In this document: positions 30,763 to 35,323 of the stretch, piece after piece
Numbering within the stretch: position 1 is the first letter of the stretch
Layout of the letters: every line of letters starts with the position of its first letter
IMG/VR virus record: IMGVR_UViG_2563366920_000004
Direction: 5' to 3' (one strand)
DNA length: 40,422 bases
From: a virus
Lineage: Duplodnaviria; Heunggongvirae; Uroviricota; Caudoviricetes
The notes under the pieces: generated by a model
Told to the model about the DNA's origin: nothing
Database searches by the model: none
Seen by the model: the letters and a program-made list of their open reading frames with translations, nothing else
Made by a program: the position numbers and the translations under genes

Positions 30763-31374
30763 TCACTTCGCCTCCTGCGGCGGTTCTGGTAGAGGCATCC
30801 AGTACAAGGCGTTCCCTAACCACGATAAAGTGCCGTCGCTCAACTCCACGTATTCCCCTTGTACCTGTCCTGCCATATACTCGCCGTGCTTTGAATAAAT
30901 TAAAATCCAATCATCTTGAGCGGGCATTCGCTCACTACAGCTTATCCAACCATCCGGAGTTACCGGATAGTTGCCCGACAGCTCGTTCAACTTGTAAGTT
31001 TGGCTTACAGGTTCGGCTTCCAGTTCTGCAATGCGCTTCTCTGCAGCTTCCAGCTCAACGCGCAGCTTCCCTACCGTAAGCGCAATATCCTCGTTCTCCT
31101 GGTCGCGGCGTTTGATGTATTGCTGGTTTCTTTCCCGTTCGTCCAGTAGTGCCTGTACTACTTCAGGGTTGAAAGCTGCGATATAACGAGCGTTGTTCTC
31201 TGCGTTCTTCTGTTCGTCGAATCCTGGCCAGTCGACAATATCTCCGTGATGATTATCACCTGGTGTGTGTACGGCGTACGTGCCGTATTTGCCCGGCGAA
31301 ATAAATGCGACCCATTCGCCTTGTGTTGCCTTTTTTGCTATCTCACGCAATGCCTGGTAATTAATTTCGCTCAC
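30763..31374 (-). CDS. Ead/Ea22-like protein with C-terminal DUF551-like domain
   Basis: 203 aa; central coiled coil and C-terminal W-x-PLPEPP motif. Confidence 0.5.
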   Translation of the reverse strand: MSEINYQALREIAKKATQGEWVAFISPGKYGTYAVHTPGDNHHGDIVDWPGFDEQKNAENNARYIAAFNPEVVQALLDERERNQQYIKRRDQENEDIALTVGKLRVELEAAEKRIAELEAEPVSQTYKLNELSGNYPVTPDGWISCSERMPAQDDWILIYSKHGEYMAGQVQGEYVELSDGTLSWLGNALYWMPLPEPPQEAK

Positions 31375-31907
31375 TGGTTGCCTCCTTTGCGAAGCTGGGC
31401 AGCAAAGTCAACTAACCACTCAGTCATTTCAACCTTCCCTACCAGGTCTGAACCAGGGTGCATACAGCAATCACTCTGCGCCGCTTTGAAATCCTTATAC
31501 TCATATTCTTGGGCCACCAGATTTTTTGCAGCTTCTATAGCAGCATCCACCCCCTGCGCCCGTACTTCAGCCAGGAATGCGTCGGTGGCTGGGGTGTCTG
31601 ATTGCAGAGACTTTGCGCGATAGTCATTCCACCCTCTTGCATACATGGGATTAACTTGCACTCCATCTTTTACGCAATATGCCTGACCTCCACGGTTGAT
31701 AACCTTGATTTCGCCCATAGCGCCAGACTTCAGCCCCGCATTCTCCACAGCCAGCGCATTAGCACGCACCAGTTGCACTTCCAGTTGCGTTGCCAAATCG
31801 CTGAGCAGCTTTGCCACACTGCGCATATCAACGGCACCACATTCTGCTTTCAGTTCCGAAGCCATCTCATGCCCGTCGGCAACTAACCCTTTGATATTAC
31901 TTTCCAT
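31371..31907 (-). CDS. hypothetical phage protein
   Basis: 178 aa ORF coupled to downstream gene. Confidence 0.4.
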   Translation of the reverse strand: MESNIKGLVADGHEMASELKAECGAVDMRSVAKLLSDLATQLEVQLVRANALAVENAGLKSGAMGEIKVINRGGQAYCVKDGVQVNPMYARGWNDYRAKSLQSDTPATDAFLAEVRAQGVDAAIEAAKNLVAQEYEYKDFKAAQSDCCMHPGSDLVGKVEMTEWLVDFAAQLRKGGNQ

Positions 31908-31968
31908 CTTTACCCTCGCTTATCCACATAACTTATTGATTACATTGATAACTAAAAAGATCGTCGAT

Positions 31969-32316
31969 TCAGAACTCTTCGATGTTCCAGCCACCACCTG
32001 CTTTCTTTGGTTTAACCGTTACCCCGATGATTCGGAACGGATACTGATCTGCGGCGACTTTGGTTTTCACCCTGGCGTCGTCGGTCCAGAATCCCCCTTT
32101 CACTTCGTGCAGCTCCATCTCGCCGGTGGCGAGCATCACAGCAAAATCGGGCGTATAGAACGTGTTGTCAGCTAACCGCAGCTTGATACCCTCAAATCGA
32201 TACCAGACGATTTCTCCTGCACGTTTACGCATCTCAAGGTGCTGGCAATACGCAGATTCTGTTTTGTTCATCTGGCCTGTTTTGAGTCGACCAAGAGCCT
32301 GTATCTGTTTTCTCAT
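31969..32316 (-). CDS. PD-(D/E)xK nuclease-like protein (DUF1064-like; possible Holliday-junction resolvase)
   Basis: 115 aa; motif TPDF ... ELHEVKG consistent with a PD-(D/E)xK active site; located after the replication genes. Confidence 0.5.
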   Translation of the reverse strand: MRKQIQALGRLKTGQMNKTESAYCQHLEMRKRAGEIVWYRFEGIKLRLADNTFYTPDFAVMLATGEMELHEVKGGFWTDDARVKTKVAADQYPFRIIGVTVKPKKAGGGWNIEEF

Positions 32317-32433: not shown

Positions 32434-33210
32434 TTACTTGATAAATCCTGCCGCCTTTCCCCGCCTGTATTCCTCCATCAGCCACTGCGCCGGTGTTATT
32501 CCCCCCAGGGTGGCGGCGTTAGGCATGCACCCGAAACTTCGCCCTGGCGGGTGGTAAACGTCTCTCCCTGTGTCCGGAGGCGTACTCATGGGTTCTGGCT
32601 TTGCCTGTATGCTGATCACCGGATCGGGTATCTGCTGTCCGGAAGCCACCTTTTTCGCCCAATCATCGAGCAGCCTGCGCGCGTGTTTCTCAACCTCAAT
32701 CTCGCTAAGCTGGCGCTGATACATTGCACGGCGGGTATCACATACGACCCAGTACATAACCGGATGCCGCCACGGGAATCTTTCGGGACCACCAGGATAT
32801 AAACTTTTTTCCTTGCTGTACCGGTGAAACTCCGCCATCACATCGTCAATGGTGACGCCAAGAACCATCTTGCTGTCTTTACACCACTTGATGAATTGCC
32901 CTGGCGACGGCCAGAACGGAGACTCACTGGCGCGGGCGTGGCGCATACCAGCGTTAACCTGTTCCATTGTAGTGATCCCATTCTCCAGAAACGCAAGCAT
33001 CCATTGCTTACGGAATTCATTAAGTTTGTTCTGCTCCCTTATGGTCGAAACGCTTGCAGGAAATGCAGCCTGTAACTGGACAAATAGTTCATTGAAAATT
33101 CTAGCGACCTGCTCCTTTTTGCCATTGCTGTCACGCCGCTCTTCATGCACAGCAACACCATGCTCACGTAAGCGATCGTACTCATTGAGAAGTTCTGGAG
33201 TTGATTTCAT
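32434..33210 (-). CDS. replication protein P-like (DnaB helicase loader)
   Basis: Recalled-sequence similarity to lambda P: FPAS ... QW-LAF-ENGITTMEQVNAGMR ... PSPGQF. Confidence 0.85.
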   Translation of the reverse strand: MKSTPELLNEYDRLREHGVAVHEERRDSNGKKEQVARIFNELFVQLQAAFPASVSTIREQNKLNEFRKQWMLAFLENGITTMEQVNAGMRHARASESPFWPSPGQFIKWCKDSKMVLGVTIDDVMAEFHRYSKEKSLYPGGPERFPWRHPVMYWVVCDTRRAMYQRQLSEIEVEKHARRLLDDWAKKVASGQQIPDPVISIQAKPEPMSTPPDTGRDVYHPPGRSFGCMPNAATLGGITPAQWLMEEYRRGKAAGFIK

Positions 33211-34030
33211 CCCACACCCCTTCTATCCAGTCAGTGTTATTCCAGTCAAGCTCATCGCTTTTCCCGACGTTTTTTGATTTTCCCCTGATATGATTTACGT
33301 GCCTGGCGAATTTTTGTTCCCACTGAACCTGCGTGAACACTTTGCCCTCAGCCATCCAGTAATCCCGGAATGCAGCAAGTTCAGCAGGTGTAAATTCCGG
33401 TTCCGGCAGGGCCGTTCCCCACAGCGCAGCACGCCGTCGAAAATCCGGCGACGGATGCCAGCCATCGGTCATCGGAAATTTCCCAATAGGTTCACTCAGG
33501 CCATCCAGAAATGCAGGTTCTGCCACCTGCAACGGCGTACCGTTCGCTTCACTGGTCGGATCACTCTCGCGCGCGTGTGCTATGTGTGGGGTTTTATATA
33601 TATCTTCCTCTTCCTCTTCCTCTGGTAACTCCTTTTGTAACGCTGTTGGCGTTACTTTTTGCGTTACTCGTTTTCGATGCTCTGCCACTCTTCTATTCGT
33701 AAGTGCACGTTTTTTCGATGATTCTCCATTGTGTCGCTCAAAGTTTGGAAGAATTAGTTTGCCGTCATGATAAGCAAGCCATCCGACGCTAATGAGGGCG
33801 TCAGCAAATCCTGTAATAAAAGCGAGTCTATCAAGTACTCCTTTTGTAACGCTGCCAGCGTTACCGTCTATTGTTTGCTGGTCAGCCCATGCCCATATAC
33901 GAACCAGCTTTCCAAGAACAGCATCTGGATCAATACCCAGAATTTCTGCTATCTGAAAAATTTCAGGTTTATCAGGAGTGATAACTTCAACCTTAATCCA
34001 GCTGCTTGCCATAGGTTTCCCCTCTTGCAC
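33182..34030 (-). CDS. replication initiator O-like protein
   Basis: Directly upstream of and overlapping the P-like gene; acidic linker (EEEEEE) and Trp-rich C-terminal domain; DNA-level repeats inside the gene. True start may be Met-7 (34012). Confidence 0.65.
   Translation of the reverse strand: MQEGKPMASSWIKVEVITPDKPEIFQIAEILGIDPDAVLGKLVRIWAWADQQTIDGNAGSVTKGVLDRLAFITGFADALISVGWLAYHDGKLILPNFERHNGESSKKRALTNRRVAEHRKRVTQKVTPTALQKELPEEEEEEDIYKTPHIAHARESDPTSEANGTPLQVAEPAFLDGLSEPIGKFPMTDGWHPSPDFRRRAALWGTALPEPEFTPAELAAFRDYWMAEGKVFTQVQWEQKFARHVNHIRGKSKNVGKSDELDWNNTDWIEGVWDEINSRTSQ
33623..33868. repeat. DNA-level repeats inside the O-like gene (candidate origin iterons)
   Basis: Identical 18-mer ACTCCTTTTGTAACGCTG at about 33626 and 33836, each part of an inverted repeat (GTAACGCTG/CAGCGTTAC), plus extra GCGTTAC half-sites; the two copies are read in different codon frames. 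Confidence 0.5.
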
Positions 34031-34205
34031 TCTTTAGTGCACAAGCAAATTCATTACGATGGCGGTTGGCGCTATTCATTGCACATTCAACACATGTTCC
34101 GTTCAGAACATACCTTTCAGAGAGATGGCCGTGACGGCACCGCTTTCCTGTGAAATAGCGATTTAACCCGGCTTTTGCGGCCTCCATTCTGGTTACTATC
34201 TTCAA
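33993..34205 (-). CDS. small Cys-rich (zinc-ribbon-like) protein in the cII-equivalent position
   Basis: 70 aa; C-x3-H ... C-x2-C motif (CRHGH ... CVEC); between the Cro-like gene and the O-like gene. Confidence 0.45.
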   Translation of the reverse strand: MKIVTRMEAAKAGLNRYFTGKRCRHGHLSERYVLNGTCVECAMNSANRHRNEFACALKSARGETYGKQLD

Positions 34206-34283
34206 TTTTTCCGCCCCTTTTTGTTATTGATATTGGCTATTTTGCACAATTGGAAAATTTGATCAACCAGATTTGGTTTTTTA

Positions 34284-34298
34284 TTACCTTTGAGGTAC
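34284..34298. promoter_or_regulatory. operator-like palindrome, one mismatch (TTACC-TTTGA-GGTAC)
   Basis: About 80 bp upstream of the 33993..34205 start. Confidence 0.4.
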
Positions 34299-34353
34299 GA
34301 ATAGATATGAAAAGACCGCCGGATGGCGGTCTACAGAGGGTTGTGGATGGATA

Positions 34354-34584
34354 TCATGAGTAGAAGAAGTATGCCAGTTCTGCTTTTGAGCGCAGCCATT
34401 GTCTTGTTTTACAGGCTTTAAAAAGCCCATTCATCAATACCTTACCTGGCATTTTGCGCTTGCCTGTTAAGTGAGTCTGGATATAGTGACTCGTCGTTCC
34501 GGCTTCCTGTGCGAAGGCTTCACGCTCATCCGGAGTAAGTGCAAGCCAGTGCTTTTTGAAATCGAAATGTCCGTTATCGCTCAT
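34354..34584 (-). CDS. Cro-like HTH regulator (YdaS/Cro family)
   Basis: 76 aa; HTH-like segment LTPDEREAFAQEAGTTSHYIQTHLTGKRKMPGK; divergent from the repressor gene. Confidence 0.6.
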   Translation of the reverse strand: MSDNGHFDFKKHWLALTPDEREAFAQEAGTTSHYIQTHLTGKRKMPGKVLMNGLFKACKTRQWLRSKAELAYFFYS

Positions 34585-34620
34585 AGCTATTGCCTGATAT
34601 TTATTTCAGATAATAAATAT

Positions 34621-34683
34621 TCACCCATAAGGTAACAAAAATCAAGGATAGTTACCTATGAGGTGCATTTACCTGTTGGGTAA
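34621..34683. promoter_or_regulatory. right-operator-like cluster of three palindromes between Cro-like and repressor genes
   Basis: TCACC-CATAA-GGTAA (34621..34635), TTACC-TATGA-GGTGC (34652..34666) and TTACC-TGTTG-GGTAA (34669..34683) in the 154-bp divergent intergenic region. Confidence 0.65.
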
Positions 34684-34738
34684 TATTGCTTTAAATTGAA
34701 TCATCTACTGATTCATATATGAGGCGATTTTCCAGAAA

Positions 34739-35323
34739 ATGAAAAGTATCCAGGACGTCCGCAGGCAAAATCTCAACGACTTGATCGACCGTGAATTCAA
34801 TGGTGTTCAGACGCGGATGGCAGAAAAACTTGGAACTCAGGCAAATCTGGTAAACCGCTGGGCTCTTGGCAAGAAGGTTATCGGCGACCAGGTTGCGCGA
34901 AAAATTGAAGCTGCCGCCAATAAACCCCGTAACTGGCTTGATATCGATCGCTCGCTTTCTCAGGAAGGTTTTCAGCCTGTCGGACCAAGCGACATTGGTC
35001 AACTGGCGGCTCACAACCTGGAACGCTGGATGAGCGAAAGCCGCGACCTTTCAACACAGGGAAAACTTCACCGTGCATCCGGCGTCGCCCAGGTGACAAT
35101 CAGCCGCCTGTTAAACAATGAGGTCAGCGTTTCCATTTCCACCCTGGAGAATGTTGCATCCGCATTCGGGCGTCACGGCTATGAATTACTGATTCACCCG
35201 CACGACCCTGCGACCATCAACTATGACCGCTCGCGCTACGCATTGTTACCCGAAACCGAGAAAGCAAAGATCGAAAGTTACATTGAATTTGTCATCAACC
35301 AGAACGAAAAAAACAAACAATAA
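34739..35323 (+). CDS. immunity repressor with two tandem XRE-type HTH domains and no S24 peptidase domain
   Basis: 194 aa; HTH-like segments QTRMAEKLGTQANLVNRWALGKK and ASGVAQVTISRLLNNEVSVSISTLENVASAFG; no Ala-Gly/Ser-Lys autocleavage signature; GAGGCG RBS. Confidence 0.7.
   Translation: MKSIQDVRRQNLNDLIDREFNGVQTRMAEKLGTQANLVNRWALGKKVIGDQVARKIEAAANKPRNWLDIDRSLSQEGFQPVGPSDIGQLAAHNLERWMSESRDLSTQGKLHRASGVAQVTISRLLNNEVSVSISTLENVASAFGRHGYELLIHPHDPATINYDRSRYALLPETEKAKIESYIEFVINQNEKNKQ

Follow-up and report, generated by a model that had tools for sequence, protein, structure and literature searches.

Does the tailed phage genome IMGVR_UViG_2563366920_000004 (Caudoviricetes) carry its origin of replication inside the gene of its own replication initiator? 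This question is raised by a short DNA repeat in the minus-strand initiator gene of the 40,422-nt stretch that was analyzed (the whole stretch is hereafter called the window). The encoded protein consists of an N-terminal domain (N-domain, aa 1-~125), an acidic disordered linker, and a DnaT-like C-terminal domain (C-domain). A first-pass annotation, made from the sequence alone, had placed a candidate lambda-like origin at the repeats. Based on a comparison of related loci, we predict that the repeats are binding sites of the initiator, that they are accompanied by an unwinding tract, and that together they constitute a lambda-like origin in an initiator family that is not homologous to that of lambda. 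We assign this reading a probability of about 75%.

The 18-mer ACTCCTTTTGTAACGCTG noticed in the first-pass annotation occurs exactly twice in the window, at positions 33628-33645 and 33837-33854. The copies are 209 bp apart and both lie inside the minus-strand open reading frame (ORF) 33182-34030. By chance, 0.03 matches would be expected, and in none of 100 shuffled sequences were two reached. Placed in register, the two repeat copies are identical at 25 of 28 nt, with all 3 differences inside a 5-nt spacer. Each copy holds a perfect 7-5-7 palindrome of 19 bp, GTAACGC-N5-GCGTTAC, at 33846-33864 (site A) and 33637-33655 (part of the site B cluster), in agreement with the inverted partner that had been described behind each 18-mer. 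A third palindrome of this type was not found in the window, even when up to 2 mismatches were allowed. The extra half-sites that had been mentioned are located by the linker-proximal copy, one of them exact (GCGTTAC, 33661-33667) and the other with 1 mismatch (GTAACTC, 33625-33631), and this cluster thus consists of 4 half-sites with an exact 12-bp period. Altogether the 7-mer half-site occurs 13 times in the window compared to 4.1 expected, and 5 of the 13 lie within 33637-33864. While the 18-mer is a real repeat, the unit that is repeated is the 7-bp half-site at a period of 11-12 bp. The half-site layout explains the 18-mer, which is one palindrome arm plus the AAAAG spacer plus the beginning of a third, degenerate half-site.

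Given that 209 is not divisible by 3, the two copies are translated in different frames, one as GNAGSVTKGV and the other as VTPTALQKEL. Site A encodes GNAGSVT (aa 50-56), which is located in a loop that connects two helices, while the site B cluster encodes RVTQKVTPTALQKEL at the end of a basic helix and, as reported previously for one copy, immediately adjoins the EEEEEED codons (33604-33624) of the acidic linker.

We followed the sites through a family sample of 80 species-representative genome loci and 80 viral contigs encoding N-domain homologs with 34-100% identity. The counts comprise 81 loci from about 80 species of Enterobacterales, Pseudomonas, Burkholderiales, Planctomycetota, and Verrucomicrobiota including Akkermansia, and palindromes were scanned with up to 2 mismatches. 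The site A palindrome was present in 77 of the 81 loci at a constant offset of +148 from the ATG. The site B palindrome was present in 76 of 81 at +337 to +393, just ahead of the linker, and both sites were found in all 63 distinct viral contigs. Only 12 palindrome matches were counted in the 476,270 positions that lie outside the first 450 nt of the gene. The 5-nt spacers are free to vary (31 versions at site A and 42 at site B). Moreover, site B is read in two different frames across the family, either as NAxSVT (63 matches) or as VTxxAL (17 matches, including the window).

Compared to how these amino acids are encoded in other parts of the genes, codon usage within the sites was strongly biased. 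At site A, glycine is encoded by GGT in 70 of 71 cases (background 20%), asparagine by AAC in 76 of 76 (65%), alanine by GCT in 64 of 75 (23%), serine by AGC in 61 of 61 (26%), and valine by GTT in 74 of 77 (29%). Leucines overlapping the half-sites of site B are encoded by TTA in 81 of 83 cases, compared to a background of 8%. The bias was also present in the 30 loci with a GC content at third codon positions (GC3) of at least 0.65. As an internal control for shared ancestry, we considered all 53 conserved amino-acid columns with degenerate codons. A single codon reached at least 90% in 6 of these columns, and all 6 lie within the two sites, while the top codon of invariant residues outside the sites accounted for 26-89%. 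Frozen synonymous codons that are confined to the sites, together with the use of two reading frames, show that the sites are conserved in DNA (or RNA) and not as peptide, which substantiates the DNA-level conservation put forward in the first-pass annotation.

The sites occupy structurally permissive parts of the protein, namely a loop, a helix end, and the disordered linker, and such parts tolerate insertions of 12 nt. Relatives with insertions of exactly 4 codons (12 nt; CNAR, SNAS, SNAG) in the site A loop gain with each of them one more half-site at a 12-nt period. As a separate observation, the N-domains of enterobacterial phages are 54-59% identical to those of prophages of Akkermansia, other Verrucomicrobiota, and Planctomycetota (L015, L016, L018, L020, L021, L022, L029, L030, and others). 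This unusually high identity across hosts may result from the embedded DNA sites, which would pin part of the protein sequence.

Site B is the more elaborate of the two elements. Across the family it comprises 3-5 half-sites spaced at 11-12 bp, most commonly in the arrangement > > < <. Directly behind it, the coding strand is on average 0.81 purine and 0.64 AT, compared to about 0.53 and 0.43, respectively, elsewhere within ±450 bp. The longest purine run of the gene falls within this tract in 72 of 76 loci, with a median length of 19 nt vs 8 nt. Arginine within the tract is encoded by AGA in 87% of cases compared to a background of 5%, and the codon usage thus indicates that the tract, too, is selected as DNA. 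In much of the family the tract is a near-identical CCAGAGAAGAGAAGAGAAGAG, which stays constant even where the specificity of the half-sites switches, and AGAGAAGAGAAGAGAAGAG is present with up to 2 mismatches in about half of the distinct sequences. Taken together, the sites and the tract are under strong DNA-level selection that is independent of the encoded peptide.

Which part of the locus do the sites belong to? DNA homology of the window to other phages splits at ~33595-33601, i.e., in the linker, which identifies this position as a mosaic joint. On the N-domain side, the matches are to Enterobacter phage BUCT554, a Klebsiella phage, and the gene named 'ydaU' in the Rac prophage of E. 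coli strain 442/2, which carries both the N-domain and the sites. The C-domain half matches the Rac-SA53 and PPompW prophages and has been swapped among phages independently of the N-domain. In four proteins that share the N-domain and are combined with different C-domains and loaders, the palindromes were kept at a spacing of 207-209 bp with differing spacers. Conversely, the palindromes were absent where the C-domain is shared and the N-domain is of the DUF1376 type or another type. The YdaU proteins of K-12 and Rac-SA53 are both of the DUF1376 type, the Rac-SA53 gene lacks the palindromes, and the PPompW prophage has TTTGGGT-type direct repeats of its own in the linker. As the N-domain of K-12 Rac YdaU is of the DUF1376 type, the literature on oriJ does not apply to the element described here. 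The initiator was the only gene common to all site-bearing loci, as the other large ORF clusters were its antisense shadows. The downstream loader varies and belongs to another family in other loci. These comparisons show that the sites move together with the N-domain, independently of the C-domain and of neighboring genes.

Further substantiating this link, a few lineages carry altered half-sites that have changed in concert. In L155, sites A and B and the extra half-site read GTCACGC / GCGTGAC, in L068 both sites and the extra half-sites read GTTGCGC / GCGCAAC, and in L032 both sites read CTAACGG / GCGTTAG. In L179-182, site B and its extra half-site read GTGGCGC / GCGCCAC, and a palindrome at site A was not detected. 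The sites of these lineages lie at +148 and +331 to +380 from the gene start, and the CCAGAGAAGAGAAGAG tract behind the switched half-sites is unchanged. Otherwise the arms are near-invariant, with changes that are mostly one-sided and affect the outermost or innermost pair; a compensatory change was seen in 1 case. A concerted change of all half-sites is what a single sequence-specific, dimeric reader would predict. Since no gene other than the initiator is shared by all loci, the N-domain of the initiator would be the most economical candidate for this reader. The comparison with relatives suggested in the first-pass annotation hence came out in favor of its reading: the repeats are kept despite differing peptides, are missing with other N-domains, and switch in concert in the rare variants. 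In the more distant N-domain relatives L183, L185, and L186, the linker contains peptides repeated in tandem (VTPPLRSRY x2; HVTVASRS x2), and these look like other iteron types, made of direct repeats, at the equivalent place.

The locus therefore combines several features of lambda-type origins: inverted-repeat sites in the initiator gene, an AT-rich, strand-asymmetric tract on the C-terminal side, co-variation of the sites with the putative DNA-binding domain, and a helicase-loader gene immediately downstream. We propose that dimers of the N-domain would recognize the 19-bp GTAACGC-N5-GCGTTAC and bind to site A (33846-33864) and to the site B array (33625-33667). The resulting nucleoprotein complex would destabilize the adjoining purine-rich, AT-rich tract (33592-33624), which would be the place of duplex opening and, as such, a proposed DNA-unwinding element. 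The DnaT-like C-domain and the lambda-P-like loader (32434-33210) would then bring in the host DnaB helicase, and in this way the element probably fires replication.

Several observations weigh against the proposed origin. We found neither a published description of the element nor an experiment on it in the searchable literature. Fold searches with the N-domain returned weak winged-helix-like matches only, and we do not claim this fold. Over 40 bp, the AT-richness of the tract in the window is only moderate (GC 0.375-0.40) and is matched by other stretches of the gene. The distance between sites A and B ranges from 189 to 237 bp and shows no helical phasing, which would have pointed to a fixed loop. 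There is no DnaA box at the element, and the count of DnaA-box-like sequences in the window is at chance level. The palindromes can also form modest hairpins (-7 to -9 kcal/mol). Finally, the minimum of the cumulative GC skew at ~34-35 kb is not independent evidence, because it coincides with the switch in gene orientation.

The purine-rich tract might be more than an easily melted spacer. Given that the purines are on the mRNA-sense strand, an R-loop could arise there when the initiator gene is transcribed: an unusually stable RNA:DNA hybrid would form, in the style of a polypurine tract, and this hybrid could open or even prime the origin. We regard a separate function of this kind as a speculative and rather unlikely extension of the proposed origin. 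If true, origin firing would be intrinsically coupled to the expression of the initiator.

Among the alternative explanations, the one that retains most weight, although it is unlikely, is that the sites bind the initiator and serve in autoregulation or copy control, as an intragenic operator, a roadblock, or by handcuffing, while the DNA opens elsewhere. With two sites ~200 bp apart in the gene that encodes it, the initiator could repress the transcription of this gene. In plasmids, Rep proteins bind as dimers to inverted repeats that serve as operators, and 5 relatives have a third palindrome in an operator-like position, 30-45 bp ahead of the start codon. Nevertheless, a pure operator would give no role to the conserved purine-rich tract with its forced AGA codons beside site B, and no other prominent repeat cluster was found in 33100-34300 that could provide an alternative origin. 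Autoregulation and a function as origin are, moreover, not mutually exclusive. The relatives with a third palindrome upstream of the gene (L009, L012, L013, L014, and L017; in L004 at position 1954) include the Rac prophage of E. coli strain 442/2 and chromosomal copies in Shigella or E. coli; the window has none.

Less probable is a function of the palindromes as hairpins in mRNA or in single-stranded DNA, acting on translation or stability, as a protein-bound RNA, or as a single-strand initiation signal. Each palindrome can form a stem of 7-8 bp, extendable by the outer half-sites of site B, with -7.4 to -8.8 kcal/mol (z ~ -4), and the complementarity of the arms is kept in the variant lineages. 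Yet it is the sequence of the arms itself that is near-invariant across phyla, beyond mere complementarity. Pairs are broken at pair 1 (8 and 20 cases) and at pair 7 (6 and 25 cases), and since the arm changes are mostly one-sided, with the single compensatory case, selection for a hairpin is not favored. Many arrays also contain an odd, unpaired half-site at the 11-12-nt period, and the switch of all sites of a genome to one variant is more indicative of a single sequence-specific reader than of independent stems. No covariance model of Rfam 15 matched at E<=1 in 33000-34700 on either strand. Intrinsic terminators were rejected as well: both palindromes were flagged on the antisense (+) strand, but a T-run is present at just one of them, the AT-rich arms have GC at no more than 4 of 8 pairs, and flanking T-runs are not conserved in the family logo. 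Slightly less credible still is the possibility that another host or phage factor reads the sites, or that they are junctions promoting the recombinational exchange of initiator modules. The breakpoints between N- and C-domain modules at ~33595-33601 do fall inside the conserved tract, and a small Cys-rich ORF (33993-34205) lies just upstream of the initiator gene. However, no neighboring gene is common to the loci, and this ORF is limited to close relatives and was rejected as a reader because it is not conserved along with the sites. A host factor shared by Planctomycetota, Verrucomicrobiota, and Proteobacteria would not account for the lineage-specific, concerted switches of half-sites, and facilitated recombination is more plausibly a by-product than a cause of the conservation. 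A chance match, or a by-product of a repeated peptide motif, is refuted by the codon and frame analysis. Although NAxSVT is encoded at both places in most of the family, the copies in the window are in different frames, the shuffles did not reproduce the match, and synonymous positions are fixed at 96-100% compared to 8-65% in the background, including the 30 loci with high GC3.

The predicted origin is best compared with oriLambda, which in lambda and the Stx phages likewise lies in the middle of an initiator gene (gene O), at the junction of N-domain and linker. The lambda-like placement suggested by the first-pass annotation is borne out: here, too, inverted-repeat sites are located at the boundary of N-domain and linker, followed by the purine-rich, AT-rich tract and by the lambda-P-like loader downstream. 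The iterons of lambda are inverted repeats of 18-19 bp, and the binding sites predicted here are also inverted repeats, of ~19 bp. The four annotated iterons in lambda gene O are followed by ACAAAAGAAAAAAGAAAAGA, which encodes a charged linker. In both lambda and the family of the window, the AT-rich tract behind the sites is purine-rich on the coding strand and encodes a charged linker, and in both lambda and the window a loader gene of the P family comes immediately downstream of the initiator. The lambda iteron was described as a 19-bp imperfect inverted repeat, with two iterons plus the AT-rich tract as the minimal unwinding unit (PMC7466680).

In contrast to lambda, with its 4-6 iterons in a single contiguous array, the window has its sites in two clusters separated by ~200 bp, its repeat unit is the 7-bp half-site at the 11-12-bp period, and the site sequence is nearly invariant across bacterial phyla. 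In addition, the initiator is not homologous to O and has a DnaT-like C-domain. The designation as an O-like gene in the first-pass annotation hence holds by analogy and not by descent that could be detected: the protein had no match to PF04492 (Phage_rep_O) at E<=0.01, and hhalign of the family profile gave a probability of 0.2%. Assignment to the YdaU/DUF1376 type of the K-12 Rac prophage with oriJ was likewise rejected, as there was no DUF1376 match. The N-terminal two thirds of the initiator are also unrelated to E. coli DnaT. The match to DnaT is confined to aa 177-258, and the full-length DnaT model (NCBIfam NF002770) reached 93.5 bits compared to a cut-off of 201. Judging from these matches, the initiator is a phage protein that borrowed a DnaT domain.

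Similar arrangements exist outside the lambda group. In gene 18 of phage P22 and in oriL of the Bacillus phage SPP1, located in gene 38, the binding repeats of the initiator lie within its own coding sequence beside an easily melted region. Initiators of this type divide their tasks, with origin binding by the N-terminal domain and recruitment of the helicase loader by the C-terminal part. The protein families and repeat sequences of these two phages differ from those of the window. Iteron plasmids with winged-helix Rep proteins also have short sites that are read by their own initiator beside an AT-rich unwinding element, and Rep dimers bind inverted repeats. Plasmid iterons are usually intergenic direct repeats of ~20 bp, and inverted repeats in plasmids are usually operators. 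Unlike in these plasmids, all elements described here are intragenic, and a winged-helix fold is weakly indicated. A natural minimal replicon with the initiator was not found among plasmids, where only two circular, phage-like records carry the gene: NC_015459.1 (L237), a 41-kb plasmid of Pusillimonas sp. T7-7, and CP088505.1 (L238), the 52-kb E. coli plasmid pE16EC1016-8. These may be phage-plasmids or assembled phage genomes.

An origin inside the initiator gene is a textbook arrangement, and a specialist would therefore expect it here. As far as the searchable literature shows, the initiator family, the bipartite layout of the sites, the half-site code that is near-universal across phyla, and the purine tract with its forced codons are new. 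They provide a concrete candidate origin for a very large, uncharacterized family of prophage replication modules, which includes phages of pathogenic E. coli (TL-2011b), Rac-like prophages of E. coli and Shigella, and prophages of Pseudomonas, Akkermansia, and Planctomycetota. The locus is also an unusually clean case of dual coding, as the peptide motifs GNAxSVT and ALPE(K/E)RREE are predicted to be largely due to a DNA-binding site and an unwinding tract, which is relevant to protein-family models and to the recoding of phage genomes. With regard to module exchange, the conserved DNA is located exactly at the joint where N- and C-domains are swapped between phages. The lineages with switched half-sites are putative natural specificity mutants for DNA reading by the N-domain. 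As a speculative extension, like the R-loop above, the near-universal half-site code might allow initiators of prophages from different phyla to cross-activate each other's origins or to compete for them.

The coordinates of the features are compiled in Table 1. The initiator gene most likely starts at the ATG at 34012, behind a GAGGGG ribosome-binding site, while the open frame extends to a GTG at 34030. Its product matches phrog_2509 ('replication initiation protein') with an E value of 6e-129. The region is 99% identical at the DNA level to Escherichia phage TL-2011b, where the gene is annotated as a replication initiation protein and an origin is not annotated. In the AlphaFold2 (AF2) model, the N-domain consists of four helices and a beta-hairpin (aa 16-87) and a long basic helix (aa 97-119), with a predicted local distance difference test score (pLDDT) of 80-96 across most of aa 11-90. 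It is presumably the sequence-specific DNA-binding domain. The N-domain had no Pfam or NCBIfam match at the thresholds used, and a sequence search for a solved relative found none, while its family comprises 7172 cluster representatives (50% identity) at E<=1e-3. Fold searches firmly identified the C-domain as DnaT, and this domain presumably contacts the loader or single-stranded DNA. The last 29 nt of the initiator gene are shared with the loader gene.

Table 1 Replication module of the window and elements of the predicted origin
Feature	Coordinates	Strand	Basis and details
Replication initiator gene	33182..34012	-	276 aa; ORF list, phrog_2509, TL-2011b, AF2 model
N-terminal domain coding region	33638..34012	-	AF2 model; 7172 cluster representatives
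DnaT-like C-terminal domain coding region	33272..33478	-	PF17948, E 1e-18
Lambda-P-like helicase loader gene	32434..33210	-	PF06992 Phage_lambda_P, E 2e-55; phrog_109 'P-like helicase loader'
Site A	33846..33864	.	palindrome GTAACGC-TGCCA-GCGTTAC; within repeat copy 33837-33864
Site B cluster	33625..33667	.	+ strand GTAACTC, GTAACGC, GCGTTAC, GCGTTAC; 12-bp period; inner half-site pair forms palindrome 33637-33655
Purine-rich, AT-rich tract	33592..33624	-	AGAGGAAGAGGAAGAGGAAG-ATATATATAAAA; directly after site B in gene orientation; encodes acidic linker

The small ORF upstream of the initiator gene (33993-34205, minus strand) encodes a Cys/His-rich protein of 70 aa (phrog_1081), and its last 20 nt overlap with the beginning of the initiator gene. 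The small ORF is kept in BUCT554 and the Klebsiella phage, and ydaT takes its place in Rac-type relatives. Further upstream, a strong terminator-like hairpin, AGACCGCCATCCGGCGGTCT followed by a T-run (34313-34332, minus strand), is located between a cro-like gene (34354-34584, minus strand) and the replication genes, in a position like that of lambda tR1. The cro-like gene forms an immunity region (34354-35323) with a divergent cI-like helix-turn-helix gene (34739-35323, plus strand), and the intergenic region between the two (34585-34738) is very AT-rich, with a GC content of 0.22-0.25. On the other side of the replication genes, a perfect DnaA box, TTATCCACA, is found at 31920-31928 (plus strand), ~1.7 kb from the sites, between the genes 31371-31907 and 31969-32316.

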